Both the position numbers and the translations under genes were made by a program. This document shows, in pieces, positions 11,247 through 34,061 of a DNA stretch of 64,000 nt. Every line of letters begins with the position of its first letter. Positions within the stretch are counted from its first letter, which is position 1. The notes under the pieces were generated by a model that searched no databases, was not told where the DNA came from, and saw nothing but the letters and a program-made list of their open reading frames with translations. Source of the DNA: a virus; IMG/VR virus record IMGVR_UViG_3300021964_000039, positions 1 to 64,000 of that record; one strand, 5' to 3'.

Positions 11247-11280
11247 ATCCACATTGTTAAAGAGCAGTGATTTTGTTCAA

Positions 11281-11327
11281 TAAATATCTTGCAATATTAA
11301 GTAAACTAGTGTAAACTAATATTGTAA
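11281..11327 (+). promoter_or_regulatory. Composite promoter of the enzyme cluster: TAAATA plus TTGCAA-17-TAAACT, with repeats
   Basis: TAAATA 11281-11286, TTGCAA 11289-11294, TAAACT 11312-11317. Confidence 0.45.
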
Positions 11328-11339
11328 TAGGAGATTAAA

Positions 11340-12389
11340 TTGAACAGATCCACTGCTTTTTTTATGAACGGCGGAGCAGGCCGTGTAATAAGTTCTATAC
11401 CTGCTTTCGAAAAATATGCTGAAGAAAATCCAGACGACAATTTCATTATTGTTTGTGAAGGAGGTATGGATTTTTTTAGAGGACATCCAACCTTGCACGG
11501 AAGATGTTATGACCATTGGCACAAAGGACTTTTTGAAGAACATATAAAGGATAGGAATTGTGTAAGTCCCGAACCTTACAGAGTTTGGGAATATTATAAT
11601 CAACAGTGTAGTTTAGCTCAAGCGTTTGATATTGCTATTTCAAACAAAGGAGTACGTGAGTTAAATATTCCAAAAATTTATCACAACAAACACGAAATAG
11701 TACAAGCATTTAATATACTAAAGGAAATTAAATCACAAACAGGATTGGATAAAGTTCTTGTAATTCAACCATTTGGAAGAACAACTGAAAATCATTCTGA
11801 TTTTATTATTGATGGTTCTAGCAGAAGTTTCACTTTAAATGACACAATAGAAATGATAGATGAATTTAAGAAAGACTATTCTGTGGTGCTTATGAGCGAA
11901 TTTCCAGTAACACTAGATGAAAAAAATACACATCCGGTTGCTATGCCAACTATTCCTGATTTAAGGATATGGAGTGCATTAATAGAAATTTCTGATCATT
12001 TCTTAGGATGCGATAGTGTTGGACAACATATTGCAAAAGCAGTAGGCACTACAGCAACAGTGGTTATTGGAAGCACATTTCCTGTTAATACTTCATATCC
12101 GGGACACAAAGACTTTGACATTTTTGATGTAGGAGAAGGAAAAAGAAAGTATAGCCCAATAAGACTTACTATGGAAGAAGAACAAGACAGATATAATGAT
12201 GAAGTAATGGAATTAACACAAAAAACAAAAAAAGAAATAATTGAAACAGTCAAAAAAAGATTAGGAAAAAGTACAAAATTTACCCAAAAAATGACTCAAA
12301 CGACTGCTCAGCAAAATGATGTTTGTCCTACACACGGAGTAGTACATAATCAGCAACCTGCACAAATATTAGGTAGAACAGGACAATAG
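11340..12389 (+). CDS. GT9-like (heptosyltransferase-like) glycosyltransferase
   Basis: N-terminal GGAGRVISSIPA and DHFLGCDSVGQHIAKAVGT resemble GT9 (g.GD...; d.fig.DSG..HlA.A.g). TTG start with SD AGGAG. Confidence 0.55.
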   Translation: MNRSTAFFMNGGAGRVISSIPAFEKYAEENPDDNFIIVCEGGMDFFRGHPTLHGRCYDHWHKGLFEEHIKDRNCVSPEPYRVWEYYNQQCSLAQAFDIAISNKGVRELNIPKIYHNKHEIVQAFNILKEIKSQTGLDKVLVIQPFGRTTENHSDFIIDGSSRSFTLNDTIEMIDEFKKDYSVVLMSEFPVTLDEKNTHPVAMPTIPDLRIWSALIEISDHFLGCDSVGQHIAKAVGTTATVVIGSTFPVNTSYPGHKDFDIFDVGEGKRKYSPIRLTMEEEQDRYNDEVMELTQKTKKEIIETVKKRLGKSTKFTQKMTQTTAQQNDVCPTHGVVHNQQPAQILGRTGQ

Positions 12390-12399
12390 GAGAACTTTT

Positions 12400-14193
12400 A
12401 TGCCACAATGGATAGCCGGAATAACTAGAGGACATAACGCTGGAGTTTGTTTGCTTAGAGACGGCGAAATAGTATTTTCTATTGAAGAAGAAAGACTATC
12501 CAGACAAAAATACGACGGCGGCCCCTTAGCGGCAATGCTAAAGATATTAGATTATACTGATAAACTTGACTACTTAGTTGTTGCCCATACACAACCTTTG
12601 TCACAAGCTCCGGCTATAGATTTTACAGGAGACAATGTCTATACAGGATTTGCTAGAAAACTTGGATTAATTGACCGCAAACAAGATTTAATTAATCATC
12701 CTCAAGTAATAGATTATTCCTTTGTCCATCATAAATTACATGCTAGTTGTGCCTTTTATAGATCTGGCTTTGAAAGTGCTACAGCAGTCATTGTTGACGG
12801 AGCAGGTTCATTTATTCCTATGAACTTTGGCTCTGATTCGGAAATGACTTGGGAGCTAGAAAGCTATTTTACATGCGAATATCCTGCAAAATTTAAGACT
12901 ATTTACAAGCATTTAGGAGGTAGAGGTCCTTGGTTAGGAGCCAAGATGCAAGTGTCTAGTTCTCGAGAAGGAGAGCAAGGTGAACATGAAATGATTATTG
13001 ACGATACCGGCGGTATAGTTAAAGGATACGAAGCTGTTACACAATACTGCGGTTGGGCACCTATCGAAGCAGGCAAGACTATGGGACTAGCACCTTACGG
13101 CAAACCAAATGATCTAATTCCTCCTATTTACACAGATGGCGGAGGTAGTGGTGAATGGAGAACTACTAATCGAAATTTAATTATACCTACATTTCCTAAC
13201 GGAGCTGCTGTAGCCGAAACAAGATTTACAGAATTAAATACTCCAGACGAGCCTATTGAAGATTTAACAAAATTACAAAATAGACGAGATTTAGCATATG
13301 CTGTACAAGCTGAAAGTCAACAAGAAGTATTAGATTTAATTATACAGGCTGTTGAGAAGACAGGAAACAAAAATGTTGTTTTAAGTGGAGGATATGGTTT
13401 AAATTGTGTAGCAAACTATTGGTATCTTGATAAGTTAAAGGAATATGATATCAACTTATATGTTGAACCTATATCAAGTGATGCAGGTACTGCTATTGGT
13501 GCAGCATTATTACATTATCATTTAATAGAAGAAGATAATTGTGTACGAGAGTACGGAGATAGTTTATATCTCGGACCAACATATACATATACCGAGTCAG
13601 AAGTAGACGAACTTATAGAAAAATATGATGGCGTATCTAAGTCAACAAATAAACAAGAGATTGCTAATTTAATAGCTGAAAAGAATATTGTTACAATTTT
13701 TCAAGGAGGGGCTGAAAGCGGACCTAGAGCATTAGGTAATAGAAGTATACTTTTTGATCCAACTTATGAAGACGGTAAAGACTTTGTAAATCAAGTAAAG
13801 CGCAGAGAATATTTCCGACCTTTTGCAGGTAGTATTTTACATGAACATGCACATGAATGGTTTGATATGAAAGGGTTGGAAGAGAGTCCTCATATGATGT
13901 ATGCTATGAACTGTCAGCCCGGCGTAGAAGAAAAGATTCCTTCAATTATTCATGTAGACGGAACTTGTAGAATACAAACAGTTAAACGTGAACAAAATCC
14001 ACATTACTATGACTTAATAAATGAATTTTATAAACTTAAAGATGTTCCTATAGTGTTTAATACAAGTTTTAATTTAGGTGGTGAACCGTTAGTAGAAACT
14101 TTAGATGATGCAGTCCGTACCCTAGTACATAGTGATATAGAATATCTATATCTTCCTGAATTAGAAAAACTTATCAAAATAGAAAACGAATGA
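12400..14193 (+). CDS. Carbamoyltransferase, NodU/CmcH/TobZ family
   Basis: GHNAG, EEERLSRQK, HHKLHA, GKTMGLAPYG, SGGYGLNCVAN, ESGPRALGNRSIL, KRREYFRPFA, HVDGTCRIQTV, NTSFNLGGEP. Confidence 0.93.
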   Translation: MPQWIAGITRGHNAGVCLLRDGEIVFSIEEERLSRQKYDGGPLAAMLKILDYTDKLDYLVVAHTQPLSQAPAIDFTGDNVYTGFARKLGLIDRKQDLINHPQVIDYSFVHHKLHASCAFYRSGFESATAVIVDGAGSFIPMNFGSDSEMTWELESYFTCEYPAKFKTIYKHLGGRGPWLGAKMQVSSSREGEQGEHEMIIDDTGGIVKGYEAVTQYCGWAPIEAGKTMGLAPYGKPNDLIPPIYTDGGGSGEWRTTNRNLIIPTFPNGAAVAETRFTELNTPDEPIEDLTKLQNRRDLAYAVQAESQQEVLDLIIQAVEKTGNKNVVLSGGYGLNCVANYWYLDKLKEYDINLYVEPISSDAGTAIGAALLHYHLIEEDNCVREYGDSLYLGPTYTYTESEVDELIEKYDGVSKSTNKQEIANLIAEKNIVTIFQGGAESGPRALGNRSILFDPTYEDGKDFVNQVKRREYFRPFAGSILHEHAHEWFDMKGLEESPHMMYAMNCQPGVEEKIPSIIHVDGTCRIQTVKREQNPHYYDLINEFYKLKDVPIVFNTSFNLGGEPLVETLDDAVRTLVHSDIEYLYLPELEKLIKIENE

Positions 14194-14939
14194 TCAAACA
14201 ACAAATACTAAGCCATATTGAAAATAATTTTTCCGATACGTATTCTATCCACGAAGAATATAGAAGCCATCCTTATTACTGTTTAATAGAGAAAAAAAAT
14301 TTTTTGCCGGCAAATATTGTAAAGATGCTCAGTGACGAATTGGATAATATTCCATTAGACAAGTGTAAGAAGTTTACTAGAAAAAGTAGTTGTATGTATG
14401 AACATAATAACCTTGATGAAACACCGATTGCAGATGCTGTAGTAAACACACTACATGGAAGTACATTTTTAAATTGGCTTCAAAAAGCCACCGGTACTGT
14501 AGATTTAATACCAGATCCTCATTTAATAGGAGCCGGTTATGCAAAAAGTTTTACAGGAGATAGTTTACAAGTACATACAGATTTTAATTGGAACGACCAA
14601 CTTAGGTTACACAGAATGTTAAGTGTTATAATTTATCTTAACGATGATTGGAATGACGACTGGGGAGGAAATTTAGAATTTTACGACACAGAAAGAAAAA
14701 CAAAAATAAATGAAGTGAAACCTGATAATGGTAATCTATTGATTTGGAGATATCATAATTTAGCCTATCACGGGTATCCTTCTCCAATGAAATGTCCCAA
14801 AAACAAATCAAGAAAAAATTTAAGATTATTTTACTATGTAAGTAATGCAAGTTACGATGATAGACATCCTCCGCATAGGAGTTTATATTGGTTTGATGAT
14901 AAAGAGAAAGTACCATACGACGTGCCATGGAAAAAATAA
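14190..14939 (+). CDS. 2OG-Fe(II) oxygenase
   Basis: HTD (HxD), IIYLN..W...WGGNLE, distal YHG, C-terminal R..L..FYY. Confidence 0.85.
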   Translation: MIKQQILSHIENNFSDTYSIHEEYRSHPYYCLIEKKNFLPANIVKMLSDELDNIPLDKCKKFTRKSSCMYEHNNLDETPIADAVVNTLHGSTFLNWLQKATGTVDLIPDPHLIGAGYAKSFTGDSLQVHTDFNWNDQLRLHRMLSVIIYLNDDWNDDWGGNLEFYDTERKTKINEVKPDNGNLLIWRYHNLAYHGYPSPMKCPKNKSRKNLRLFYYVSNASYDDRHPPHRSLYWFDDKEKVPYDVPWKK

Positions 14940-15445
14940 GTTTAGATTTACCAAATTTTAAATACAAAACACTACGTTATACCAACATGCATAATGTTGG
15001 ATATGAATCAAGAAGTAACAAATATGAAAAGCAAAACGAATTATATAGACGGGTAGGATACAACACAAAAAATTCTGCCTACAAACAAACTTTCGAAGTA
15101 GACCAAGATATAAACAATTTTGCATCTACATTATTTGAAAGATTTACAATAAGTGTAATGTGCCAAGCACCTGGACAAACATTGCCTGAACACTTAGATA
15201 CCTTTTACTCAATTAGTAAGAAGTTTAATGTAGATCCAAAAAAATGTTGTAGAGTGAATATTTTTTTAGAAGATTGGAAATCCGGTCATTATTTTGAAAT
15301 AAATGAAAATCCAGTCTTGCAATGGAAAGCAGGAGATGCTATAATTATAGAGTTAGATGAGCCTCATTTAAGTGGTAATATGGGGTTAACTAATAAGTAT
15401 ACCATGCAAGTTACAGGAGTTAAGGATGAATTTAAGAGGTGCTAA
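14927..15445 (+). CDS. Cupin/2OG-Fe(II) hydroxylase-like protein
   Basis: PGQTLPEHLD (HxD), W..GD, PHLSGN distal His. Confidence 0.65.
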   Translation: MEKISLDLPNFKYKTLRYTNMHNVGYESRSNKYEKQNELYRRVGYNTKNSAYKQTFEVDQDINNFASTLFERFTISVMCQAPGQTLPEHLDTFYSISKKFNVDPKKCCRVNIFLEDWKSGHYFEINENPVLQWKAGDAIIIELDEPHLSGNMGLTNKYTMQVTGVKDEFKRC

Positions 15446-16292
15446 ACCTATAAATGATAACAGCATAAGAGAATTTATTTCATCCATAGATAATAATAGT
15501 TTGTACGACGATTCTTTACCTGAGAAATTTATTCATAATTTTTTTGATTGGATAGTATCTAGCAAAAATAATAGTATCAAAGGTTTAGAAAATTTTACAA
15601 ATAGAAAACTTTGTGCTGGAACTGCTCAAGCATTTGATCACTTTTATTTGAAACACAAAAATAAACGATTTAGATTTTTTAAAGGCGAATTTATGTATCA
15701 TTCAGCATGTTTGAAAAATTATGGGAAATTCGAATTCCTTGAAAATGCTAGGTTAGATTATAATGACGCAGTAATAATTAGTATACCATTTAGTGATACA
15801 GGTAGCCAAAAAAACATCGACGAATTGCTGTTTAATTGCTATGGATTGGATATTCCAGTATTGCTAGATTTTGCATATTACCCTTGTACAAAAAATATAG
15901 AAATTAATCTAGATAAATTTTCAGCAGTAGAAACAGTTTGCTTTAGTATAAGCAAAGCCTTTTACGGAGCAGAATTTTTACGTGTAGGAATGAGATTACA
16001 AAAAGAAAATACTGACGACGGTATAGATGTCTTTAACAGTGTAGAGATGGTTAACCGTTGTTCTGTAAACATTGCCAATGAACTAATTAGAAATTACAGT
16101 GTAGATTATAACTGGCAAAAGTACAAAGAGGTATACAAAACAGTTATTAATGAAAATAATTTGTTAGAAACAGATTGTATTATGTTTGGATTAGGCGGTA
16201 AAGAATATGCTGATTATAATAGAGGCGGTGATGTTAATAGAGTATGTGTGTCTGAATTAATAGGAGAAAAGATTAATGGCATTAGTAAGTAG
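15426..16292 (+). CDS. PLP-dependent (fold type I) aminotransferase-like enzyme
   Basis: LLDFAYYP (DxAY), FSISKAF (Schiff-base Lys), LRVG. Confidence 0.7.
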   Translation: MNLRGAKPINDNSIREFISSIDNNSLYDDSLPEKFIHNFFDWIVSSKNNSIKGLENFTNRKLCAGTAQAFDHFYLKHKNKRFRFFKGEFMYHSACLKNYGKFEFLENARLDYNDAVIISIPFSDTGSQKNIDELLFNCYGLDIPVLLDFAYYPCTKNIEINLDKFSAVETVCFSISKAFYGAEFLRVGMRLQKENTDDGIDVFNSVEMVNRCSVNIANELIRNYSVDYNWQKYKEVYKTVINENNLLETDCIMFGLGGKEYADYNRGGDVNRVCVSELIGEKINGISK

Positions 16293-17337
16293 TCATAATG
16301 ACTGGGATCCTTTAGAGGAAATTTTTGTAGGAGTAGCGGATCACGCAAGAATTCCTACTATCGACGCAAGTACACATAGTTTTGGATTTGCAGACTTTTC
16401 TTATGATGATATTAAGGATTTAGAAGGACCAAGTCCGCAATGGGTTATAGATGAAGCAAATGAAGATTTAGATAACCTAGCAAATGAACTCCGTAAACTA
16501 GGTGTAATTGTAAGACGTCCAGAAGCAATCGATCATTCAAAATCATTTAAATCCCCAGATTGGGAAACTACAGGTTGGTATACATATTGTCCAAGAGATT
16601 TATTATTACCTTTAGATAATTTAATCATTGATTGTCCGGGAGCAATGAGAGCAAGACAGTACGAAACACTTGCATATCGTGATTTCTTATACGATGTAGT
16701 AGATAACGGTGGAGAATGGTTAAGTGCACCAAGACCTAGACTATTAGATAGTAGTTATCAACTAGATGATTTAAGTATTCCTACATTAACTAATGAAGAA
16801 ATAGTTTTTGATGCTCCTAATGTAGTTAGACTAGGTAAAGATTTAATTTATCAAGTTTCTAATTCAGGCAACTTGTGGGGATACAAATGGTTACGTAACT
16901 TGCTCGAACCACGTGGATACCGTATCCACCTAGCAGAAAAATTTTATAGTTATTCACATTTTGATTCAACTGTAATTCCTCTACGTCCAGGACTGGTATT
17001 GTTTAATGGCGATCGATGTACTCCTGATTGGTATCCACCTATATTTAAAGATTGGGATAAGATCTTCGTGCCCGGAGATCAAGTGATTGATATAGGCACA
17101 AACTTAGAAAACGGTGTTAGTCCTTGTTCAAAATATATAGGTTTAAACATGCTTAGTGTTAATGAAGAACTTGTAATTATAGATGAAAATCAACAATATG
17201 TCAGAAAAGAATTAGAAAAACATGGAATTGAAACTATTGGATTGCCCATGCGTCAAGCAAGAACATTAAGCGGCGGATTTCATTGTGTTACATTAGATAC
17301 AAAAAGAAAAGGACCCTGCGAGAATTATTTTGACTGA
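16276..17337 (+). CDS. Amidinotransferase, inosamine-phosphate amidinotransferase (StrB1)/AGAT family
   Basis: HNDWDPLEEIFVG, YCPRD, FDAPN (Asp), SHFDST (His), GGFHCVTLD (Cys): complete catalytic triad. Confidence 0.92.
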   Translation: MALVSSHNDWDPLEEIFVGVADHARIPTIDASTHSFGFADFSYDDIKDLEGPSPQWVIDEANEDLDNLANELRKLGVIVRRPEAIDHSKSFKSPDWETTGWYTYCPRDLLLPLDNLIIDCPGAMRARQYETLAYRDFLYDVVDNGGEWLSAPRPRLLDSSYQLDDLSIPTLTNEEIVFDAPNVVRLGKDLIYQVSNSGNLWGYKWLRNLLEPRGYRIHLAEKFYSYSHFDSTVIPLRPGLVLFNGDRCTPDWYPPIFKDWDKIFVPGDQVIDIGTNLENGVSPCSKYIGLNMLSVNEELVIIDENQQYVRKELEKHGIETIGLPMRQARTLSGGFHCVTLDTKRKGPCENYFD

Positions 17338-18193
17338 TAGAGGCTATCATATACCTTATCTTGAATGGATGATCACAACTAGTTGTGATCTAGCCTGTCC
17401 AGGATGTGATAGATTTATAGAATACGATCATAATTGGACTGAAAAATTACAAGACGTCAAACAGCGTATGGTTAAATGGTCAAAAAAGCTAGATCCAGAT
17501 AATCTGACATTAATAGGCGGTGAGCCGTTAATACATCCTGATTTATATGATATTATTAAACATGCTGCAAAATGCTTTGACCACAGCACTATAGAAATAT
17601 ATACTAACGGACTTTTACTACACAAAAAACCAAAATTATATAATACATTACGTAAGATTGGCAAAGCAAAGTTAAGTGTTACCTTACACAATAGGGATCC
17701 ACAAATAAGAAAATGGATTAATTATAACTTAGATAAACAATTTTTTCAAAAAGATAAATGGCGCAAAGTTGGAAAAAACTATTGGACTAGCGGAAATATT
17801 GAAATAGAAATAACCGACCCCACCAAAGGCGGTTGGTATGAATACCGCAAGAAAGTTAATGGACAACTGAAGCCATGGAATGATAATAATATAGAAAGTA
17901 GCTATAGTAACTGTACAGCTAACATTTATCCTATCATTTATAATAATAAGTTGTACAAGTGCCCTCCTATAAGTATGTTACTAACACAAGCAAAAAAATA
18001 TGGTTTGTTAAATGATAAAGATTGGGCACCTTATGTAAATTACACTCCATACAGTGTTGATGATAATTTAGAAGAATTTATTCAAAATATAAATTGTCCT
18101 CATGATATTTGCAATATGTGTCCTGCAAACCCTGTTCTTATAGAACAACCTGAGGCTGAAGTAAAGCATAATATGGAGAAATTAGTCATATGA
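17330..18193 (+). CDS. Radical SAM enzyme with C-terminal Cys cluster (SPASM/Twitch-like)
   Basis: CDLACPGC, GGEP, YTNG, later LYKCP and CNMCP. Confidence 0.85.
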   Translation: MTDRGYHIPYLEWMITTSCDLACPGCDRFIEYDHNWTEKLQDVKQRMVKWSKKLDPDNLTLIGGEPLIHPDLYDIIKHAAKCFDHSTIEIYTNGLLLHKKPKLYNTLRKIGKAKLSVTLHNRDPQIRKWINYNLDKQFFQKDKWRKVGKNYWTSGNIEIEITDPTKGGWYEYRKKVNGQLKPWNDNNIESSYSNCTANIYPIIYNNKLYKCPPISMLLTQAKKYGLLNDKDWAPYVNYTPYSVDDNLEEFIQNINCPHDICNMCPANPVLIEQPEAEVKHNMEKLVI

Positions 18194-19362
18194 AAAAAAT
18201 TCCTGTCTATGAGTTAAACCAAGCTGGCAGAGTATTTTCATTACTCACAGAAAATTTTTCAAATGTTTTAAACTTTACATATGGACATAATAATTATGAC
18301 ACAAAAAAATCTCTATTGTTTATTGAATATGTTGGGTTAGACTTAGGTGTATTAGATACATTAAGAGAGCTTTCTCTAAACACAAAGAAAAAATTCTTCT
18401 TGGTTATTGACGATACATATGAAGGATTACTTTCAAAAGAAGTACTACAAAAACATTTAGAATATATAGAATCATTACACGAAGTAATAGACGAATTTAT
18501 AATTTTATCAGCAAACAAAAGTATTTTTAATGAAATGGTAAATTTAGGTTATGAGAAAAACTTTATATACTTTAACACTCATTTATATCTTAGCAAGTAC
18601 GATGGTATTGATATACAAAATTCTACTGTCAGTGAAAGTGATTTACTAAGAAAGAAAAAATTTCTTTGTTTGAATAGACAAGAAAGACTTCATAGGATAC
18701 TAGTAGTAGACCATCTATGTAAGACTAAGCAACAAAGGCATGGTTTTATTAGTTGTCCGTTGTCCGACTATGGACTTGCATTTGAAAAAAAATTAGATTC
18801 AAGTTACTCGGAAGTTTTATTTTTTGATAAAGCATTATTAGATTACAAGTTCACTGATGAACAAAAAAATAGACTTAGTTCTATTTTACCTTTAGAATTA
18901 GACGTTCCAGATGAAATGCACAAAAGTTTGCGCAATGAAATGCCAGATACAAAAGCATATTTTGAAGAAAGTTATTTTAGTATAATCACTGAAGGTGATT
19001 TCTATACAGAAAACAAGCGCCAAATGTTCACAGAAAAAATTCTCAAAGCATTTATATATAAGCATCCTTTTGTAGTTGTAGGGTTGCCTGGCACATTATC
19101 ATTGCTAAGAGAACATGGATTTTTAACATTTCCGCAAATAATTGATGAGTCATATGATTCAATTGAAGACGATACAGAAAGATTAAATGCATGTTTAAGA
19201 GAGATTGACAAATTACTATCTTTAAATATTCACGAACTGAAAGATTTATATGAAAGTATAAACCCTATATTAGAACATAATAGAAAACTAGTGCTACAAT
19301 ATAATGCAATGCCAGCCCCGTCTTTACTAGTTAATATTATTCAGCAGTGGTTTTATAATTAA
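18190..19362 (+). CDS. Conserved phage protein, putative glycosyltransferase-like
   Basis: KKFLCLNR..R.HR, SYFSIITE, FTEKILK...HPF, GFLTF...IDESYD. A family that recurs in phage glyco-clusters; function inferred only. Confidence 0.45.
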   Translation: MKKIPVYELNQAGRVFSLLTENFSNVLNFTYGHNNYDTKKSLLFIEYVGLDLGVLDTLRELSLNTKKKFFLVIDDTYEGLLSKEVLQKHLEYIESLHEVIDEFIILSANKSIFNEMVNLGYEKNFIYFNTHLYLSKYDGIDIQNSTVSESDLLRKKKFLCLNRQERLHRILVVDHLCKTKQQRHGFISCPLSDYGLAFEKKLDSSYSEVLFFDKALLDYKFTDEQKNRLSSILPLELDVPDEMHKSLRNEMPDTKAYFEESYFSIITEGDFYTENKRQMFTEKILKAFIYKHPFVVVGLPGTLSLLREHGFLTFPQIIDESYDSIEDDTERLNACLREIDKLLSLNIHELKDLYESINPILEHNRKLVLQYNAMPAPSLLVNIIQQWFYN

Positions 19363-20281
19363 GATGATTGACTATAAATTCTTTATTAGGTATATCAATT
19401 ATTTCTAGTTCAGCTAACATAGCCTGTTTTTCTTCATCTTCTAAGTTTACAATATCTAATTCTCTTGGGTAAGTTAGGCAATTAATATACCATTCAAAAT
19501 CATTATCTACAACCCAAGAATGCAAGTCGCCTAGCATGAAATAGTTGTTACGATGTAATACTGTATTAATTTGTAATTGATATTTTTGTGCTGTAGTCCA
19601 TTCGACAAAATCTAATATTTTATCCCAATTTGCACCTTCACGGACTAAAGAATTATTAGTGCCATATCCGTCGATACTAAGAATAAATTTTACACTTTTG
19701 AATTGATCAAATATTTTTGTATCTTCAGGAATAAACATTCCATTTGTGTTATATATCAATTCAACTAAATTTTTTTCTTCTACTGTATTAATTACATTTA
19801 AATGTCTATTTGTTATTAATGGCTCCCCACCTAGAAATAATATTTTATTAACAGAGTTAGGCACATCAAAATCTTTAGTTTCTATTAGTTTGTATTTTGA
19901 CTGACCAAAAATTTCTTCTTCTTTTTTAATCCAACTTGTACTAAATTCACTATTACATCCGTCACATGCTAAATTACACAAATTATCTAATCCAATTTCT
20001 AAGTACTTTAAACTTATCTCATTTGTATTATATTTTTCATTAAATTCTTGTCTTAGACTTTTATGTCCAATACTTTCTTCATAGTAACATTTTTCACATT
20101 CAGCAATGTATTCGTTGTTTTGATTTTTTTCTCGTAACTTTTCATATGCATCATTTAATAACACGTTATCTAAATTTCCATCAAATATGCCAATAGGCTC
20201 CTTAAACCTACAGCAAGGATAAATTCTGTCTCCTGGCCTAATGTTTGTATGTTGCCAAAAAGCACTACATAGATGAGTCAT
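19337..20281 (-). CDS. Radical SAM enzyme with N-terminal SPASM/Twitch domain
   Basis: N-terminal LC...YPCC...CEKC, then CNLACDGC, GGEP, NTNG, SIDG. Confidence 0.85.
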   Translation of the reverse strand: MTHLCSAFWQHTNIRPGDRIYPCCRFKEPIGIFDGNLDNVLLNDAYEKLREKNQNNEYIAECEKCYYEESIGHKSLRQEFNEKYNTNEISLKYLEIGLDNLCNLACDGCNSEFSTSWIKKEEEIFGQSKYKLIETKDFDVPNSVNKILFLGGEPLITNRHLNVINTVEEKNLVELIYNTNGMFIPEDTKIFDQFKSVKFILSIDGYGTNNSLVREGANWDKILDFVEWTTAQKYQLQINTVLHRNNYFMLGDLHSWVVDNDFEWYINCLTYPRELDIVNLEDEEKQAMLAELEIIDIPNKEFIVNHLNYKTTAE

Positions 20282-21170
20282 AAGGCACTCCGTGTTTTTT
20301 AAATAATTTTAATATTTCTTTCTCTAATAATTTTTCTTTTTCGTGATATGTAATGATATTAGTATTTGCTAGTAATGCTCGTTTGTAACTTTCTGTAAAC
20401 ATGGCAGGCGGCATATTTTCTTTTATATTTCTATAAGGATCAAAAATACTTGTTGTTTTTGAAATATTGTCATCTATATGTTCAACACCTAAATTAACCA
20501 AGCATGGTATCTGTAAATCATTAGCATGTTGGTACACAATATCATAATTACAAATTACAGCGTCACAACAACTAACAATATAACCTAAATCATTAGATTT
20601 ATAATCATTATTGGGTAATAAATTTATATAGTTTACCTTGTCTGATAGAAATGTTTCTATGTGTTTAGCTGCTGTAGGTGAAAAACTGCGTAATTTTTTA
20701 TCATACCACATATCTTCGGTTACTATAAATTCTTCTTGCCAATTATCACTTAAATAATATGGTGCAACCAGTACATTACTGAAATTGTTTTTGTTTTGGT
20801 CTTGGATATATTTTTCTATTTGTAATTTTGTGTCTATAGTAGGCATATATGTTACAGGTGTTATGTATTGTTTTTTTCCTAATATGGTATAGCTAAGCCA
20901 GGCGTCTAAGCTAGGTTTGTTTTGTAGACATTCATACTGTGATTTATAATCTATAGTTGTTACTTCATTTGGAACAATTATATCTTCATAAACACGCTTA
21001 TCTTCCATGGTCCAAAATTTGTTACCTAATAGTGGGTTATTAAGGAATATACTATATTCTTGATCAAATATTACTGCAAAATCTTCACTATTTTCTGTAT
21101 ATTTTGCAAATATTTTTGCTGATATATAAGCAATAACATGATTACTATTTGTAAATAGAAACACTTTCAT
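20265..21170 (-). CDS. Divergent paralog of the GT9-like protein at 11340
   Basis: Colinear with 11340..12389: VLVAPY vs VLVIQPF, LRSFS vs SRSFT, CDAVIC vs SDHFLGC, SIFDP vs DIFDV. Confidence 0.45.
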   Translation of the reverse strand: MKVFLFTNSNHVIAYISAKIFAKYTENSEDFAVIFDQEYSIFLNNPLLGNKFWTMEDKRVYEDIIVPNEVTTIDYKSQYECLQNKPSLDAWLSYTILGKKQYITPVTYMPTIDTKLQIEKYIQDQNKNNFSNVLVAPYYLSDNWQEEFIVTEDMWYDKKLRSFSPTAAKHIETFLSDKVNYINLLPNNDYKSNDLGYIVSCCDAVICNYDIVYQHANDLQIPCLVNLGVEHIDDNISKTTSIFDPYRNIKENMPPAMFTESYKRALLANTNIITYHEKEKLLEKEILKLFKKHGVPYDSSM

Positions 21171-21775
21171 ATGCCTGTAACTCCAACACTGAATCTGATT
21201 ACTACTTTAGGTTCATCTGATAAATTTACAGTGAAGTGATTTCTCAAAAATCCTGGAAATATATAGACGGCAGATTCAGGAGTGTTATACATTTGGAAGT
21301 GTGAATTATATTTGTTTTCGGGTTTATTTTGTAAGTTTGAAAAATATTTGTTATCAACCACATGCTCAAAATTTATAAACCCAGAATTAGGAGCACTATG
21401 AACAAAATAATATCCCTGCCAAGTTGCATCACCGATATACGATTGTGTCAAACATCCAGGAGGAATAATTAGAAAATCCATATTAGTAAACGAAATATTA
21501 TATCTTGTGTTTAAGTTTGTCCTATCATTAACTGCTTTAGACCAATCACTAATTTGCGGAGATTCGCAGAATTCTGCAAATGCAATATTATTTTGTAAAT
21601 TATCAATAGATTGATATACGTCAACACTGTGAATAGTATTGAAGTTTGCATGTTTTTGTGAAACGTCTTCTATCACACGGGAAATTTTAGGTTTAAACTG
21701 ATTGTGCTCCAAAAACTGAAACACGTCTAAACTTATATCAAAAAGACTAATATTTTGTAAACCAGATTCATTCAT
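21167..21775 (-). CDS. Putative 2OG-Fe(II) oxygenase-like protein (TIGR02466-like), metal ligands degenerate
   Basis: WQGYYFV..P.NSG.I.F and IFPGFLRNH..VN.SDEP.V.I.F pattern; the usual HxH is absent. Confidence 0.55.
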   Translation of the reverse strand: MNESGLQNISLFDISLDVFQFLEHNQFKPKISRVIEDVSQKHANFNTIHSVDVYQSIDNLQNNIAFAEFCESPQISDWSKAVNDRTNLNTRYNISFTNMDFLIIPPGCLTQSYIGDATWQGYYFVHSAPNSGFINFEHVVDNKYFSNLQNKPENKYNSHFQMYNTPESAVYIFPGFLRNHFTVNLSDEPKVVIRFSVGVTGI

Positions 21776-21789
21776 AATTTAATGTAACA

Positions 21790-22703: not shown

Positions 22704-23264
22704 ATGAGTATACCTTTAATTGGATTAGATAGAGACGGAACAATAAACATAGACAAAGGATATATTAAAGATCCTGCAGATTTTGAACCTATTCCAGGTA
22801 GTTTAGAAGCGATAAAGTTAATACGAGAAAAGGGTTACGATGTAGTAATACTGTCTAATCAAGCTGGGATAATGAAAAAAATTATGACAGAGATTGATGT
22901 AGATAGAGTAAACTATCGTATGTTAGAGATGTTAGGCCAAATAGGATGCCCTAACATCAATGGTTTATACTATAGTATGACTAATCTTAAAGAAGATATA
23001 TATGCAAAACCTAATATAGGCATGTTTCAAAGAGCTGAAAAAGAAATTGGCGTAGATTGGAAGAACAGTTACTTTGTAGGAGACAAAATTAGTGATCTTA
23101 AAGCCGCAGTGAAGGCAAAATCAAAACCTATATTAGTCAAAACAGGACATGGGGAAGAAACCTTTACTAGACTAAACACATTTAGCCAAAAGGACCTGAA
23201 AAAAATTACACTAATTTATGACAACCTACTTGCGTTCGCGGAAACATTACCCGTTGTAGAATAA
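22704..23264 (+). CDS. gmhB: D-glycero-D-manno-heptose 1,7-bisphosphate phosphatase (HAD)
   Basis: LDRDGTIN, SNQAGI, KPNIGM, FVGDKISD, LVKTGHG. Confidence 0.88.
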   Translation: MSIPLIGLDRDGTINIDKGYIKDPADFEPIPGSLEAIKLIREKGYDVVILSNQAGIMKKIMTEIDVDRVNYRMLEMLGQIGCPNINGLYYSMTNLKEDIYAKPNIGMFQRAEKEIGVDWKNSYFVGDKISDLKAAVKAKSKPILVKTGHGEETFTRLNTFSQKDLKKITLIYDNLLAFAETLPVVE

Positions 23265-30000: not shown

Positions 30001-32885
30001 TACAAACAACTACTATTACTGACGGTGTCGGAACTGCAACAATCACAGGTTCAGGATTTATAGGCAATACTATAAACTTTATTGGTTCTGTGACTTTGAG
30101 TGAACCATCTATACTAGCAGTACCATCACTAACAAACATTAATTTTGAAGCCTTAGCAACAATACAAGTTACTTGGCCATATGCTCATGGACTTATTCCG
30201 GGCAATAGCTTTATTGTTACCCAAACTAGTGATGATAACTCAAATAATCACGATTTGGTTGCAGGATCATACCTTGTAACAAGTGTGCCTGCAAGTAATG
30301 TTATTACCTATCAAGCAAGAGCTGAAGGATTTATAGATGATACTGGTATTGATAGTACAGGAACTAGTGCTGGAGTAGGAACAATTGAGGCTACTATATA
30401 TCCTAGACCTGATAGCTTTTTTGTACATAGACCATTTGATGGGGGCGTACAATTAGGCACAGGCGGACCGCAACACGGTGCACAGGCAATTCGTCAGAGC
30501 AAGAAATATATTCGTTATCAGTCAGGTAAAGGTATTATGTACACAACTGGTGCACTATTTGCACCAAGTTATGATTTGTTAAGTGTTACAGCAGATGGTG
30601 TAGAAGTAGGGGCAACAATAACTTGCGTAACAGACGATACAGATCACGGATTACAAATCGGCGGCATTGTGCGATTAATAGGTATTAATACTCCGGGATA
30701 TAATAGTGGTGCAGAAACTGCTGTACCGCCACAATTTGATTATACTGTTACTAATATTATAGATGAAAGAACATTTACAATTACAGCACAACGTAGACTA
30801 GGACACAATATTGCAGAACTAGGATTCGGAGCACAAGTTAGTGTTGTAGAATGGCATGGAGCTACAGTACGTTCAGGAATATTTGACGATCAAAACGGTA
30901 TTTTTTGGGAATATGACGGAAGAAATTTAAATGTAGTGCAGAGAACCGCTACAAGACAGCTTGCAGGTACTATTTCATGTACATCTGACAGCAATTTAAT
31001 AATAGGCACTAACACAAGATTTAGAGATCAGATCAAAGCAGGAGATAGGATTGTTATCAAGGGTATGACCCATGTAGTCACCAATTGTGTTAATCAAACA
31101 AGAATGACTGTAACTCCAGACTTTAGGGGTGTTAGTAACGTAACAGCCGCAAAGGCAAGTTTGATTGTTGACAAAAAAATTAGACAAGATGAGTGGAACT
31201 TGGACAAATTAGATGGCAACGGACCTAGCGGTTATGATATGGATCCAGCAAAGATGCAGATGATTGGAATACAATATTCATGGTATGGTGCAGGATTTAT
31301 TGATTATATGGTCAGAGGTAGTGATGGTAATTTTGTTTACTGCCACAGAATCAGAAATTCAAACGTAAATACCGAAGCATATATGAGGTCAGGTAACTTA
31401 CCAGTTCGTTATGAAGTAACTAATGAGGGTACACCTGGAAAACTACGGTCTAACATGTCTATATCAGATAATATTATACCACTTGAAGATGCAAGTTTCT
31501 TTCCTAATTCAGGCACTGTTTACATAGATAACGAGATGATGAGATATACAAACAAAGCAGGTAATGATCTAATTGGCGTAACAAGAAGTGCAACATTAAC
31601 AAACTTTTCCAGTGGAGCAACTCGTAACTATACAGCAGGACCTGCTGATGCACATGCAGATAATACTGGCGTAGTTCTAATTAGTAATACTATTACTCCT
31701 AACATTAGTCACTGGGGTAGTGCTTTCATTACAGACGGTAATTTTGATGATGACAGAGGATATATTTTCTCATACACAGAATCCGCACTAGAAATTAGTA
31801 CTACTAGAAGGTCAGCATTTCTAATGCGACTTGCACCTAGTGTTAGTAACGCTATTGTAGGAGATCTAGGAGAACGTGACCTACTTAATAGAGCACAGTT
31901 ATTACTACAAGGTATTGAGATTACATCAGATGGTTTTGATGGTTCTAATAATCCAATTCAAGGTGGTATTGTTGTTGAAGGCATACTCAATCCAAAAAAT
32001 TATCCTGTCAATCCTGACGACGTTGTGTGGTCAGGACTAAGCACACAGGCCCAAGGTGGTCAGCCTAGCTTTACCCAGATTGCATCTGGAGGCGGTATTA
32101 ACTGGACAGGTGGAGCAACACAAACTACTGCTGCTGTAAACTATCAGGGCGATATGACGGTAACAGGTATTCAAAATAGTTTTGAAGTTGATGCACAAGG
32201 CCAAGGTAGAGATGACTATGTTTGGGTTTTAGATAGTGTAATCCAGGCACAGGGTTTGCGAGCTGGCATGGTATGTAATACACCGCCATTTAACGGATTG
32301 AGGGTAACTGGTATTGGTAATTTAGATCCTGCCTTCGGAGACAGGCAACTCTTCTTTACCAACGACGCATCTAACACAGGCACAACTTATCCTCCTGGTG
32401 CTTTAAGCCTTTCATTTACATTTGCTACTGCACAAGGAAAAACTCCTGTAGCATATTTTGAAAAAGCCAGCTGGGATGCTAGTAATGCAGATGCTAACAC
32501 TGAAGTTGATCCAGCAGACACACAGTTTCCTGCAGGTACTACGGTAAACACTATTAGTAATCAAAAATTTGGTTCTACTGAATATGTAGAAGTTACATTT
32601 AACAATAGTTCAACTACCACTTTACAGGGCGGCAGCACTGTTACATTCCTATTTGGACAACCTGCATACGCACAACCAGGAGAAACTGTATTTTCATTTA
32701 TTGCACAACCAGGAGAGCGGGCCGATTTGACGTTAGAGTCTCTTAAGGAATTAACAAACACCACACTAGGTGGTAGAGGTACTTTCCCTAATGGTCCTGA
32801 CGTACTTGCTATTAATATATATAAAGTTTCAGGATCAGCTACAAATGGTAATCTAATTATACGTTGGGGAGAGGCTCAGGCTTAG
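27066..32885 (+). CDS. 1939-aa virion structural protein
   Basis: Thr/Gly-rich beta protein with DADFEYGLQPTKW and RQSKKYIRYQSGKG motifs and about 5 internal LGGxTPxND repeats. Confidence 0.7.
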   Translation: MAKRKIENYIFYPGLGLNDNLYPNAYWLLENNKSFIQEEVVAWIQAQVDAGVVGFVGYTYNTEKCKRDTGYVIDAWLTDLRYGGNANISKVVSYYWDQDVAQVDGSRTPEIEVYKFLKDTLITNHILTNNSYSASNTVLPQVIDTNYTSESGASNRIIELANIVINVITTGLSALPSTIFTGVGHIKMPGKYRLEDLLIITDATANEIIYNFAAPGLGGSVTYEKKSDDDFPTFIDTADYVTTLKLQKNTASSSADNEIQLFSEEKEIRTRPFDFGTDAIERMRIAPPLSMLDADFEYGLQPTKWSAIGIMRGYPSVYEIPGTDLDIVSVTTDASAGTGGVGQSKITVTTVSKHNYTNETAVVIKGLEPGISGALRAEGSFVLTDVIDEFTFTYFAKSKVGSAQGEDLGTNFTLLREAGFYTGSAIGSPDWTIISQGTSGNITPQFASPLGSTRLTMVSGSDVPELGAPISNPTYFPTGTQVTGVTGTDGINFVGLPGADINAGDTIATFGDVSGIQIGHAVDNGTGDALFVTNVAGNSVTFDQQFTDTFTAAYGEFTGVSGTTVAGTGAGAQFDISKSGNVYSIDGINGGASYKKGDAILLPGDLLGGSTPTNDATVVVTSVTGGSITTADITGTAFSGDLVYTGITLGYQNGNGNGPVDFDVTLEDNVYSVTVSSPNTSTGFAQGDLLFIQGTSFPPTGNASNDLTIKVTSVGASGEILNVTASGTAPDVEVDYASVSYTTTGAGVGLDIDVQKQGVIYSNVFLRSAGSGFTTSDTVTISGVDLGGITPDNDIKLRIVEVDGSGAIISFDVEGTDLSSAAVAANRDTVFKTAQILSGVNAEFEITNDGTIYTVSDITNAGTDYGTDQTFLIPGTVLGGATPTNDLTLQITQVDGNGAIISVTPSGVSPAIPSSFTNITGVNLPNNGAGATFDIVNSNGTYTITVNEAGLNYREGNQISIDGADLGGANPANNATVTVQTTTITDGVGTATITGSGFIGNTINFIGSVTLSEPSILAVPSLTNINFEALATIQVTWPYAHGLIPGNSFIVTQTSDDNSNNHDLVAGSYLVTSVPASNVITYQARAEGFIDDTGIDSTGTSAGVGTIEATIYPRPDSFFVHRPFDGGVQLGTGGPQHGAQAIRQSKKYIRYQSGKGIMYTTGALFAPSYDLLSVTADGVEVGATITCVTDDTDHGLQIGGIVRLIGINTPGYNSGAETAVPPQFDYTVTNIIDERTFTITAQRRLGHNIAELGFGAQVSVVEWHGATVRSGIFDDQNGIFWEYDGRNLNVVQRTATRQLAGTISCTSDSNLIIGTNTRFRDQIKAGDRIVIKGMTHVVTNCVNQTRMTVTPDFRGVSNVTAAKASLIVDKKIRQDEWNLDKLDGNGPSGYDMDPAKMQMIGIQYSWYGAGFIDYMVRGSDGNFVYCHRIRNSNVNTEAYMRSGNLPVRYEVTNEGTPGKLRSNMSISDNIIPLEDASFFPNSGTVYIDNEMMRYTNKAGNDLIGVTRSATLTNFSSGATRNYTAGPADAHADNTGVVLISNTITPNISHWGSAFITDGNFDDDRGYIFSYTESALEISTTRRSAFLMRLAPSVSNAIVGDLGERDLLNRAQLLLQGIEITSDGFDGSNNPIQGGIVVEGILNPKNYPVNPDDVVWSGLSTQAQGGQPSFTQIASGGGINWTGGATQTTAAVNYQGDMTVTGIQNSFEVDAQGQGRDDYVWVLDSVIQAQGLRAGMVCNTPPFNGLRVTGIGNLDPAFGDRQLFFTNDASNTGTTYPPGALSLSFTFATAQGKTPVAYFEKASWDASNADANTEVDPADTQFPAGTTVNTISNQKFGSTEYVEVTFNNSSTTTLQGGSTVTFLFGQPAYAQPGETVFSFIAQPGERADLTLESLKELTNTTLGGRGTFPNGPDVLAINIYKVSGSATNGNLIIRWGEAQA
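28760..30060 (+). repeat. About 5 internal ~85-aa protein repeats (G..LGG.TP.ND.T..V..V...G.I)
   Basis: LLGGSTPTND, FPPTGNASND, DLGGITPDND, VLGGATPTND, DLGGANPANN in the translation. Confidence 0.6.
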
Positions 32886-33249
32886 GCTTTTGACTATCTC
32901 CAGGACCAATTCTGTAGTTATCTTCTACACTATCTGCGGTGCTTACTTCTGTAATACTACTGTTAGGCATCATTGCTTCTAATTGATGAGGCATCAATGG
33001 AGGATTGTGCCAAGTATCGCCTTCCTTTAAATGTACCTGCTTTAGTTCTGCTGTTTCGGTGTCAATATACCTTAACAAAAATTGTCCGCTGTTTACAAAC
33101 CATGTTTCGTCTTTTTCTTTATGAAAATGCATACTAAATTTATTACCTGGTTTGGTAAACACTAACAGTTTACCGCAATAATTTTCAGTAGAAGCAAAAA
33201 TTAATTCATATCCCCAACCCTTTTCAACCATACCGCTTAGTCTTGTCAT
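32857..33249 (-). CDS. Cupin, sugar-phosphate isomerase-like
   Basis: KGWGYE, FSMHFH..KDETW, PHQL, EVST..DNYR; last gene of the hldE-hldD operon. Confidence 0.7.
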   Translation of the reverse strand: MTRLSGMVEKGWGYELIFASTENYCGKLLVFTKPGNKFSMHFHKEKDETWFVNSGQFLLRYIDTETAELKQVHLKEGDTWHNPPLMPHQLEAMMPNSSITEVSTADSVEDNYRIGPGDSQKPKPEPLPNV

Positions 33250-34061
33250 TTTGTGTCCTCTTTTATATAATCTAGCACATTTGTAAATTTGTAATCTATG
33301 TGAGACTTTAATTTATCCAAGTTCGCACATGTATAATATTGATATTGCGATTTTAGTTGCTCAGGCATCGGTATATAATTGATATTACAATTATACTTTT
33401 TCTCATATGCTTTTGCTATGCTTTCAAAACTGGTAGGTAATCCTGTCCCTAAATTAAATATTCCTGATACATCTTTTGACATAAATTGTTCATGAATGTT
33501 GCAGACGTCGCCTACATATACAAAATCTCTTTTACATTCACTACTATTTTCAAATAATACAATTTCGCCTTCTTGGGCTTGTTTTTTAAATTTACTAATG
33601 GGGCTTGCTTGATCTAATTTGTGATCCTCGTGCGGACCATAAACATTAAAGTATCTAAATCCTTGAACTAAGATGTCAAAGTCATTGTGGAGAGTTACAA
33701 ATCTATCAAACAAATATTTGCTCCAAGCATAAGGACTTTGAGGCAATAATGGAGCATCTTCTACAAAATGCTTCCATGGTCCATATACACTTGCACTACT
33801 AGCATACTGCAAATTAGTACCTTGCATATCACAAATTTGTAGTAACCTCATACTAAAGTCCAGATTCTGTTGCATTACAAGCTCAACGTCTGTTTCAGTT
33901 GTACTGCTAATCGCACCTAAATGAACAACCCAATCATAAGCAGAACAGTCAGGAACTGTGTTAGGTACGTAATCCCAAACTTCAACATCATGCGATGCTT
34001 GGAGATGTGCAACCATATTTTGTCCAATGAAGCCTTGATGTCCTGTAATGAGTATTTTCAT
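33246..34061 (-). CDS. hldD: ADP-L-glycero-D-manno-heptose 6-epimerase
   Basis: ITG..GFIG, HLGAISSTTE, YASSASVYG, YAWSK, FRYFNVYGPHEDHK, RDFVYV, YQYYTCA. Confidence 0.9.
   Translation of the reverse strand: MKILITGHQGFIGQNMVAHLQASHDVEVWDYVPNTVPDCSAYDWVVHLGAISSTTETDVELVMQQNLDFSMRLLQICDMQGTNLQYASSASVYGPWKHFVEDAPLLPQSPYAWSKYLFDRFVTLHNDFDILVQGFRYFNVYGPHEDHKLDQASPISKFKKQAQEGEIVLFENSSECKRDFVYVGDVCNIHEQFMSKDVSGIFNLGTGLPTSFESIAKAYEKKYNCNINYIPMPEQLKSQYQYYTCANLDKLKSHIDYKFTNVLDYIKEDTK

Follow-up and report, generated by a model that had tools for sequence, protein, structure and literature searches.

Amidinotransferases share a mechanism in which a catalytic cysteine takes up the amidino group of arginine covalently, ornithine leaves and a primary amine is converted to a guanidino group. 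Homologues of these enzymes have already been annotated in phages, namely in CP220 (2010) and S-SCSM2R (2025). In the T4-like Campylobacter phages CP220 and CPt10, a 'glycine amidinotransferase' is located amid several radical SAM genes (Timms et al. 2010, PMC2853527). The cultured Synechococcus phage S-SCSM2R carries a '2OG-Fe(II) oxygenase' (ORF308) and an 'inosamine amidinotransferase' (ORF309), and the homologue was filed under antibiotic synthesis genes without tests (PMC12801897). Pelagimyophages and cyanomyophages have a hypervariable island within the structural module, described as the host recognition cluster (HRC), where fibre genes occur together with genes for GT8, rfaE/HldE, UDP-glucose dehydrogenase and radical SAM enzymes (Zaragoza-Solas et al. 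2020, PMC7029224).

The stretch of DNA analysed here (the window, 64,000 nucleotides of an IMG/VR record) is from an uncultured estuarine giant (jumbo) phage. Its viral origin, assumed in an earlier reading made from the sequence only, is borne out by the IMG/VR record and by the presence of tail sheath, TerL, gp32, UvsX and gp9/10-like genes, and TerL is 54% identical to that of jumbo phages such as PA5oct. A megablast search of positions 11000-22000 against cultured phages gave no match. Fibre proteins are encoded at 2297-7129 and 7938-10491, the latter being Cys/Gly-rich fibre-tip paralogues, while gp9/10-like genes are found at 23763-26454, HldE/SDR genes at 33246-35305 and gp15 at 35784-37214; the window also holds a dNMP kinase gene. 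This arrangement of fibre genes and glycan-type genes within a structural module matches the HRC concept (PMC7029224), but the gene triad described below does not appear in that account and the phage itself is nearer to the jumbo phages (PA5oct) by its TerL. The T4 late-promoter motif TATAAATA was absent throughout the window, and scans of the window for sigma-70 promoters and terminators gave chance-level results only. The amidinotransferase gene (AMT) and the genes considered with it are as follows.

11340..12389, + strand: U349, possible GT9 heptosyltransferase-like protein (NCBIfam matches far short of the cut-off: RfaQ, E 0.0016; heptosyltransferase III, E 0.014)
12400..14193, + strand: NodU/TobZ-family carbamoyltransferase (Pfam Carbam_trans_N and Carbam_trans_C, E 1e-58)
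14190..14939, + strand: OXY, 2OG-Fe(II) oxygenase (Pfam 2OG-FeII_Oxy_3, E 1.4e-15; in 47 related loci)
14927..15445, + strand: C172, small double-stranded beta-helix (cupin / Fe-oxygenase-like) protein, 172 aa
15426..16292, + strand: P288, divergent virus-specific class I/II (HisC-like) PLP aminotransferase-fold enzyme, 288 aa
16276..17337, + strand: AMT, StrB1-type L-arginine amidinotransferase, 353 aa (PDB 1bwd match, catalytic residues, tree)
17330..18193, + strand: RS1, radical SAM enzyme (Pfam Radical_SAM, E 2.7e-12; in 48 related loci)
18190..19362, + strand: U390, phage-specific family (invariant R169, E268 and E282-K283; in 50 related loci)
19337..20281, - strand: RS2, N-terminal-twitch radical SAM protein (NCBIfam NF033640, 205.6 bits, cut-off 170; in 53 related loci)
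20265..21170, - strand: U301, kept beside RS2 in related loci (synteny)
21167..21775, - strand: U202, TIGR02466 / putative 2OG-Fe(II) oxygenase-like protein (TIGR02466 E 1.7e-9, below cut-off; 2OG-FeII_Oxy_5 E 0.004)
22704..23264, + strand: HAD phosphatase, GmhB-like (Pfam PNK3P, Hydrolase_like, HAD)
32857..35305, - strand: cupin, NAD-dependent epimerase/dehydratase and HldE-like kinase/nucleotidyltransferase (Pfam Cupin_2, Epimerase, PfkB and CTP_transf_like)
60584..62827, + strand: cytidylyltransferase-like/mannose-6-P-isomerase (PMI) fusion, GT8 and GT-like gene (Pfam, synteny)

The genes at 32857..35305 form a sugar-nucleotide set of the ADP-heptose type, as judged from their domains. U301 had no family match in Pfam or NCBIfam, and U390 matched no Pfam, NCBIfam or solved-structure (PDB) profile; the nearest named Atlas clusters to U390 were Glyco_transf_10 at 0.80, a level often reached by chance, so that it is possibly a GT10-like transferase, as a lead only.

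Comparison with solved structures confirmed that the ORF at 16276-17337 encodes a full-length amidinotransferase of the AGAT/StrB1 family within the pentein superfamily, as judged from its residues and alignment. In a phmmer search of the PDB, all seven distinct sequences matched, which represent four proteins (StrB1, HsvA, AGAT variants and SxtG), aligned over residues 2-353 with E values from 4e-95 to 1e-53. StrB1 (1bwd, EC 2.1.4.2) was the top match over the full length (E 4.1e-95, 322 bits), followed by HsvA (200 bits), AGAT (198) and SxtG (186). No Pfam or NCBIfam family was found above threshold for AMT, arginine deiminase (ADI) matches being sub-threshold only. Alignment with Streptomyces griseus StrB1 gave 46% identity over 351 columns with 7 gap positions, in which D108, D179, H228, D230 and C337 of AMT are paired with D108, D179, H227, D229 and C332 of StrB1. 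The Asp-His-Cys triad reported in the sequence-only reading is therefore intact (D179, H228, C337), and all five segments that it had quoted as colinear with StrB1 at similar length were found and confirmed by the alignment. Across 82 viral AMT homologues, the triad, D108 and D230 are kept, with D179 replaced by E in four. AMT evolves under purifying selection (dN/dS 0.04-0.19).

The same reading had claimed that AMT is StrB1-like rather than AGAT/CyrA-like and had proposed an alignment and a tree as the check. We built a tree of 119 rows by a quick LG+G4 run with SH-aLRT support, not a full bootstrap search, in which the clades were anchored by PDB look-ups (P0202 = StrB1, P0275 = SxtG-like, P0292 = AGAT-like). 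A deep split (SH-aLRT 100/100) places AMT and StrB1 on one side and AGAT, SxtG and HsvA on the other, and StrB1 and the phage AMT share a clade of 56 rows (support 99). The claim thus holds, with 322 bits for StrB1 against 198 for AGAT; membership of the AGAT/CyrA group was rejected, AMT lying outside that clade and scoring lower against it. AGAT/CyrA/SxtG/HsvA enzymes have the superfamily, fold and catalytic mechanism in common with the phage AMT, but they are across the 100-support split, score 186-200 bits and carry extra insertions. AGAT has 13 extra residues at about query positions 158-175, with further gaps; at the sequence level, the architecture of AMT is the short StrB1 form that is devoid of the AGAT-specific insertions.

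The StrB1 likeness nevertheless stands for the type and not for orthology. The phage enzyme is of the same length as StrB1, colinear and matching in all catalytic residues, yet at 46% identity it falls into a viral clade of its own (12 rows, support 98), apart from the actinobacterial StrB1 orthologue group (8 rows, support 99). Its partners also differ, being a HisC-like class I/II PLP enzyme, not one of the StsC/DegT type, and a conserved cupin. The acceptor of the phage AMT probably differs from that of StrB1.

The overlap with an upstream PLP enzyme, another point of the sequence-only reading, was also found: AMT begins with ATG within the last 17 nt of P288 and a GGAG Shine-Dalgarno sequence is present 11-14 nt upstream. 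On the basis of this overlap and the Shine-Dalgarno sequence, C172, P288 and AMT may be translationally coupled. Judging by fold and motifs, we regard P288 as a fold-type I PLP enzyme of class I/II. Its invariant residues in the alignment are D148 (in PVLxDxAY), S176-K177 (SxSK), R186, R266 and R272, among which the PLP-lysine K177, the pyridine-N aspartate D148 and the phosphate-binding R186 match HisC motifs. The profile match to HisC has an E value of 0.019, and the AF2 model (pLDDT 89.5) retrieved HisC 1uu1 by Foldseek at E 6e-13, with HisC, CobD, AspAT and GntC as the nearest folds. In the ESM Atlas, P288 falls in viral 'aminotransferase class I/II' clusters. There was no Pfam match at threshold; given its short length (288 aa) and a score under the PF00155 threshold, P288 is a divergent member of the class. 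An assignment to the StsC/DegT sugar/cyclitol aminotransferases was rejected on the HisC-like profile and Foldseek matches.

C172 carries an invariant H89-x-D91...H147 motif in the alignment, with no invariant Arg or Lys after the distal His, and its profile matches to cupins, AtsK and proline hydroxylase were weak. With an AF2 model of pLDDT 92, Foldseek returned weak matches (TM ~0.43) to the AsqJ/SptF 2OG oxygenases and small cupins, and small metal cupins and isomerases scored as well as oxygenases. C172 is homologous to ORF308 of S-SCSM2R (hhalign 99.7%). The two loci are thus alike in that a C172 homologue is directly upstream of a StrB1-side AMT, and they differ in that the S-SCSM2R AMT is 41% identical to ours, belongs to a different subclade and is partnered by a short DegT/AHBA-synthase-type PLP protein. 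Five annotated glycosyltransferases flank the S-SCSM2R AMT, with a radical SAM gene around. The CP220/CPt10 loci resemble the window in having an amidinotransferase among radical SAM genes and then sugar-transferase-like genes; in CP220 the AMT is flanked by two nucleotide-diphospho-sugar transferases and a PAP2 phosphatase. However, the CP220 AMT is 26% identical to that of the window and is on another branch of the StrB1-side clade. The CP220 annotation contains no P288 homologue, and gp085, a 173-aa protein upstream of the CP220 AMT, was rejected as a homologue of C172.

In size, the AMT clade amounts to 2803 protein clusters (E <= 1e-10), and it is represented at no fewer than 212 IMG/VR loci. 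Among approximately 82 related IMG/VR loci the core triad was conserved, with C172 found in 73, P288 in 75 and AMT in 80 (AMT identity down to 63%); radical SAM, glycosyltransferase-like and sugar-nucleotide genes are usually nearby, and in 24 loci the cytidylyltransferase-like/PMI fusion, GT8 and GT-like genes are directly downstream of the cassette. Many relatives have the cassette adjoining gp32/UvsX, not the fibre genes. In the 344-kb, 99%-complete relative G001, which has nine U390 paralogues, the triad is apart from the main radical SAM array. Divergent loci carry UDP-glucose-dehydrogenase-like genes, an NAD epimerase/dehydratase beside P288, and GT1 and GT29-like genes. Viral AMTs of a second type have a fragment of a DegT/StrS sugar aminotransferase as their partner. 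A cluster on one Bdellovibrionota chromosome, comparable to the phage cassette, contains an AMT, five RS2-like radical SAM genes, two genes resembling P288 and one resembling U390, as well as SDRs and UDP-glucose-dehydrogenase-like genes. A cyanobacterial StrB1-like gene (in G218) has no neighbours in common with the phage cassette. Searches of five related phage records, including G001, found no inositol-phosphate synthase (PF07994), Gfo/Idh/MocA dehydrogenase (PF01408), ThyA-type (dCMP/dUMP) hydroxymethylase (PF00303) or TGT/DpdA (PF01702). A cyclitol could be supplied by the host.

The reading that we favour, with a probability of about 0.5, is that the three genes form a module in which AMT acts last and guanidinylates an amino sugar or amino-polyol phosphate destined for a glycoconjugate; what is proposed here includes the order of the steps, the nature of the acceptor and product, and the target. 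C172 would prepare or position a carbonyl or hydroxyl, P288 would install the amine, and AMT would amidinate it in the final step of the module. AMT is predicted to be active and L-arginine-dependent, with Cys337 holding the amidino group, ornithine being released and the primary amine becoming a guanidino group. The radical SAM, oxygenase and carbamoyltransferase neighbours may then tailor the guanidino unit, and the glycosyltransferase-like proteins may transfer it onto the glycoconjugate. The likeliest acceptor would be an amino sugar or amino-polyol phosphate, with glycine and scyllo-inosamine phosphate less favoured. The surrounding genes make an amino sugar plausible as acceptor; a cyclitol phosphate is less likely. 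A sugar-gene context of AMT is found in three independent phage lineages (the window; the divergent loci; S-SCSM2R with CP220), and in the window it consists of the carbamoyltransferase, HldE-like gene, SDR, HAD phosphatase, GT8 and cytidylyltransferase/PMI. Gene neighbourhood is an association, not proof. Since the locus is tied to the fibre/baseplate host recognition region, the glycoconjugate may be on the virion or the infected-cell envelope. More tentatively, and with the odds against it, the product of the triad might be a guanidino sugar or polyol phosphate on phage fibres, the virion or the infected-cell envelope, forming a permanently cationic glycan decoration. Among the surface glycans of phages and bacteria we know of no such guanidino decoration; if the idea is true, its effect could be to tune the binding of receptors or to block superinfecting phages.

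The enzymes with the nearest folds to P288 (HisC, CobD, AspAT, GntC) have amino acids or phosphorylated amines as substrates, and an amino-acid-like or phospho-alcohol acceptor fits this as well as a sugar does. The module might accordingly use an acceptor other than a sugar and yield a small guanidino compound, either free or phospho-activated, from a precursor of the amino-acid or phospho-amine type. Examples are an amino acid that has been hydroxylated or transaminated, and an amino-alcohol phosphate that the cytidylyltransferase-like enzyme would activate afterwards. StrB1 itself acts on a phosphorylated amine, the invariant C-terminal R266 and R272 of P288 could bind a carboxylate or phosphate, and in 24 loci the cassette has a CTP_transf_like fusion gene behind it. 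We consider this rather unlikely, as AMT has glycosyltransferase and sugar-nucleotide genes next to it in three phage lineages and no gene for a transporter or for export came to light. The position of the cluster between fibre and baseplate genes raises another explanation, in which virion proteins or a peptide, such as the fibre-tip paralogues at 7938-10491, are modified post-translationally: radical SAM enzymes and hydroxylases would act on the protein itself and AMT would amidinate a side-chain amine. Radical SAM/SPASM-type enzymes and P4H-like or Asp/Asn-hydroxylase-like oxygenases are indeed often peptide-directed. To our knowledge, however, no member of the amidinotransferase family amidinates protein, it is not obvious what a PLP aminotransferase would do to a protein, and in many relatives the cassette is located beside gp32/UvsX instead of the fibre genes; we regard the proposal as improbable.

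That same location, together with the dNMP kinase in the window, would suit hypermodification of phage DNA, in which a sugar or amine is added to a base and then guanidinylated. T4-like phages are known to hypermodify bases by means of glycosyltransferases and of PLP and radical SAM enzymes, but neither PF00303 nor PF01702 was found in the five related records and we regard this reading as very improbable. We give equally little credence to a true StrB1 orthologue making a streptidine-like guanidino-cyclitol 'antibiotic', as proposed for S-SCSM2R (PMC12801897). StrB1 is the best solved relative, the JGI and NCBI pipelines label relatives as inosamine-phosphate amidinotransferase, and the phage homologue has been classed among antibiotic synthesis genes (PMC12801897); against this stand the separate viral and actinobacterial clades, the absence of PF07994 and PF01408 from the five records and an aminotransferase partner that is not of StsC/DegT type. 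Lastly, relatives are auto-annotated as 'glycine amidinotransferase', which would make AMT an auxiliary metabolic gene for guanidinoacetate or creatine-like compounds. This is scarcely credible given the 100-support split from AGAT/SxtG/HsvA and the bit scores of 322 and 198, and it leaves the obligatory PLP and cupin partners unexplained.

Amidinotransferases are few in number, and those characterised each mark out a distinctive pathway of metabolism or natural-product synthesis. The enzyme described here represents a large viral clade with two obligatory partners, in a region of marine T4-like and jumbo phages that is thought to govern host recognition. Identification of its acceptor would test if the labels 'glycine amidinotransferase', 'creatine AMG' and 'antibiotic synthesis gene' are misleading, and would provide the first chemical handle on the widespread radical-SAM/glycosyltransferase islands of phages, which have been unexplained since CP220 was reported in 2010.

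The amidinotransferase gene of the window lies in a cassette, whose genes are listed below together with their occurrence among 82 IMG/VR loci fetched from the 212 that were matched.

Genes of the cassette (window coordinates, strand where assigned, description, loci with the gene)
14190-14939: 2OG-Fe(II) oxygenase, OXY; 47/82
14927-15445 (+): C172, double-stranded beta-helix model with the motif H89-x-D91...H147; 73/82
15426-16292 (+): P288, class I/II PLP aminotransferase by fold and motifs; 75/82
16276-17337 (+): AMT, amidinotransferase of 353 aa, ATG start, GGAG 11-14 nt upstream; 80/82
17330-18193: radical SAM protein, RS1; 48/82
18190-19362: U390, phage-specific family; 50/82
19337-20281 (-): N-terminal-twitch radical SAM protein, RS2; 53/82
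20265-21170 (-): U301
21167-21775 (-): U202, putative 2OG-Fe(II) oxygenase-like; 37/82

In a phmmer search of all PDB sequences, the best match of AMT was Streptomyces griseus StrB1 (1bwd; E 4.1e-95, 322 bits, residues 2-351), with weaker matches to HsvA (200 bits), AGAT (198) and SxtG (186). BLASTP against the StrB1 reference P0202, taken from the protein collection, gave 46% identity over 351 columns with just 7 gap positions, bearing out the resemblance proposed in the sequence-only reading; all five peptide segments which it quoted are present in the ORF. The Asp-His-Cys triad described there is indeed intact: Cys337, His228 and Asp179, together with Asp108 and Asp230, align with C332, H227, D179, D108 and D229 of StrB1. 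These residues are kept in 82 viral homologues, with D179 replaced by Glu in four, and pairwise dN/dS against relatives was 0.04-0.19, with dS high and near saturation. AMT is thus an intact gene that evolves under purifying selection, and it very probably encodes a StrB1-type amidinotransferase that is active and depends on arginine.

A tree of 119 rows was built from representatives at 50% identity, named StrB1 proteins, viral homologues and the S-SCSM2R and CP220 phage proteins (IQ-TREE quick mode, LG+G4, SH-aLRT support). A deep split (100/100) separates 38 rows, including P0275 (best PDB match SxtG, 348 bits) and P0292 (AGAT, 375 bits), from 81 rows holding StrB1 and P0278, which scores best to StrB1. 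AMT falls on the StrB1 side, as had been proposed, and not with AGAT/CyrA; a 56-row clade (support 99) unites it with actinobacterial StrB1. Within this clade it sits in a separate 12-row viral clade (98), which rules out calling it a StrB1 orthologue. The enzyme had been recognised correctly; within its known family it is a distinct viral variant. The S-SCSM2R enzyme belongs to a different subclade and that of CP220 to a further StrB1-side branch. The viral clade also includes a 3.7-kb contig assigned to Synechococcus lacustris (L082/L088), which carries close homologues of AMT, P288 and C172; another close homologue, partial and 93% identical, is P0028 from a Psychroflexus MAG bin. Such short contigs and bins probably represent phage DNA in cellular assemblies, and their host signal is unreliable.

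P288, the upstream ORF whose end overlaps the start of AMT by 17 nt, had no Pfam or PHROG match. An alignment of 17 homologues showed D148 in PVLxDxAY, S176-K177 in SxSK and R186 to be invariant, and the derived profile matched histidinol-phosphate aminotransferase (E 0.019) with exactly those motifs aligned. The AlphaFold model is confident (pLDDT 89.5, pTM 0.90) and, by Foldseek, matches HisC, AspB, CobD and other class I/II aminotransferases at E 6e-13 and below; the ESM Atlas places P288 in viral 'aminotransferase class I/II' clusters. The earlier suggestion of a PLP enzyme therefore holds. Its family, though, is that of the aminotransferases for amino acids and phospho-amines rather than the DegT/StsC type for sugars or cyclitols.

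H89-x-D91...H147 of C172 is invariant in the alignment, and its model is a confident double-stranded beta-helix (pLDDT 92) that resembles, at low TM-score, both 2OG oxygenases (AsqJ, SptF) and small metal cupins. By hhalign (99.7%), C172 is a homologue of the '2OG-Fe(II) oxygenase' of cyanophage S-SCSM2R, whose gene directly precedes the amidinotransferase of that phage.

C172, P288 and AMT are kept together down to 63% AMT identity while the genes around them vary. Comparison of loci L015-L047 with the window (14190-21775, 53911-63762) placed the cassette at two alternative genome positions, either behind the fibre genes and a carbamoyltransferase, as in the window, or between gp32-UvsX and a cytidylyltransferase/mannose-6-phosphate isomerase fusion gene with GT8 genes, which suggests that its genes travel together. 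Divergent loci contain further genes, namely UDP-glucose-dehydrogenase-like genes, an NAD epimerase/dehydratase beside P288, GT1 and GT29-like genes, and genes for methyltransferases, SAM synthetase, oxygenases resembling Asp/Asn hydroxylases and additional radical SAM enzymes. P288 and AMT, normally overlapping, are separated by insertions in L028-L030, L007 and L033-L037: a 185-206-aa 2OG-Fe(II) oxygenase in some loci, a 73-aa ORF and a 96-aa PAAR-motif ORF in others, and a 370-aa ORF without family in divergent ones. Just downstream of the cassette, several relatives carry a full-length tryptophan-halogenase-family flavoenzyme (L030:15014-16609, Pfam E 1.5e-93; compare 'PrnA' in S-SCSM2R, L085:16683-18092), which is absent from the window. 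A second viral AMT type, preceded by a truncated (~200 aa) DegT/DnrJ/EryC1/StrS-family protein, occurs in L076/L078/L079 (~14085-15660), and some phages hold two AMTs of different subclades within one locus. In S-SCSM2R (region L085 6293-9960) the single AMT belongs to the subclade of this second type, and a short gene of the AHBA-synthase/DegT type precedes it by a few genes.

The window belongs to an 80-kb IMG/VR record, estimated 22% complete, and encodes tail sheath, tail tube, TerL (closest to Pseudomonas jumbo phage PA5oct, 54%), gp32, UvsX and gp9/10-like and gp15-like proteins, as well as an HldE-like kinase/nucleotidyltransferase, SDR epimerase, cupin and HAD phosphatase. Its DNA recurs almost whole in metagenomes labelled estuary and 'soil'; marine runs contained a ~0.2 share, uninformative on habitat, and none of the runs searched that contained it was an RNA run. 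The T4-type late promoter core TATAAATA occurs on neither strand of window 1-64000, where shuffled sequences would give ~12.6 copies (sd 3.5); either this T4-like jumbo phage relies on a different late-promoter motif or it avoids the word. Three tandem paralogues (7938-10491, ~280 aa, Gly_rich_2 match), with a local GC content of 46% versus ~35% elsewhere, lie immediately before the enzyme cluster, flanked by the fibre genes and a weak tail-assembly-chaperone match.

In the relative G001 (IMG/VR record of 344 kb, 99% complete, containing L050), ten N_Twi_rSAM genes exceed the NF033640 cut-off; five of these form a single array (232.8-240.2 kb), and nine U390 paralogues are scattered genome-wide. 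The gene set is not confined to phages, since a ~20-kb cluster on a Bdellovibrionota chromosome (2.2-Mb contig; L107+L108, G759:C1:1858000-1879000) contains an AMT, five RS2-like radical SAMs, a U390-like gene, two P288-like PLP genes, SDRs, UDPG-DH-like genes and a DegT fragment; a homologue of C172 was not found in it.

Earlier publications have annotated phage homologues of AMT. In Campylobacter phages CP220 and CPt10, five radical SAM genes and a 'putative glycine amidinotransferase' make up an interchangeable module (Timms et al. 2010, PMC2853527). A 2025 paper placed the 'inosamine amidinotransferase' of S-SCSM2R among 'antibiotic synthesis genes' and, in the virion proteome, detected a further amidinotransferase as well as a prolyl hydroxylase (PMC12801897). 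Zaragoza-Solas et al. (2020, PMC7029224) defined a host recognition cluster of fibres, GT8, rfaE, UDP-glucose dehydrogenase and radical SAM genes, proposed to modify the host O-chain. None of the three reports contains an amidinotransferase test.

We propose, with a probability of about 0.5, that C172, P288 and AMT would act in this order, AMT last, so that an amino sugar or amino-polyol phosphate would receive a guanidino group, and that this product would become part of a glycoconjugate connected with the fibre/baseplate region. This reading is favoured because of the conserved adjacency, the translational coupling and the sugar-nucleotide/glycosyltransferase context, which recurs in three lineages of phages and one of bacteria. 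Its main weakness is the HisC-like P288, which would suit an amino-acid-like or phospho-alcohol acceptor equally well, an alternative that we consider unlikely overall.

Searches of G000 and four related phage records, G001 among them, found no inositol-phosphate synthase (PF07994) or Gfo/Idh/MocA dehydrogenase (PF01408). This weighs against a streptidine-like pathway complete in the phage itself and makes a streptidine-like cyclitol a less likely product. The same records yielded no ThyA-type hydroxymethylase (PF00303) or TGT/DpdA (PF01702); this speaks against the two most familiar routes to base hypermodification in DNA, and DNA modification is likewise less likely, as are modification of protein by the cassette and amidination of glycine by AMT.
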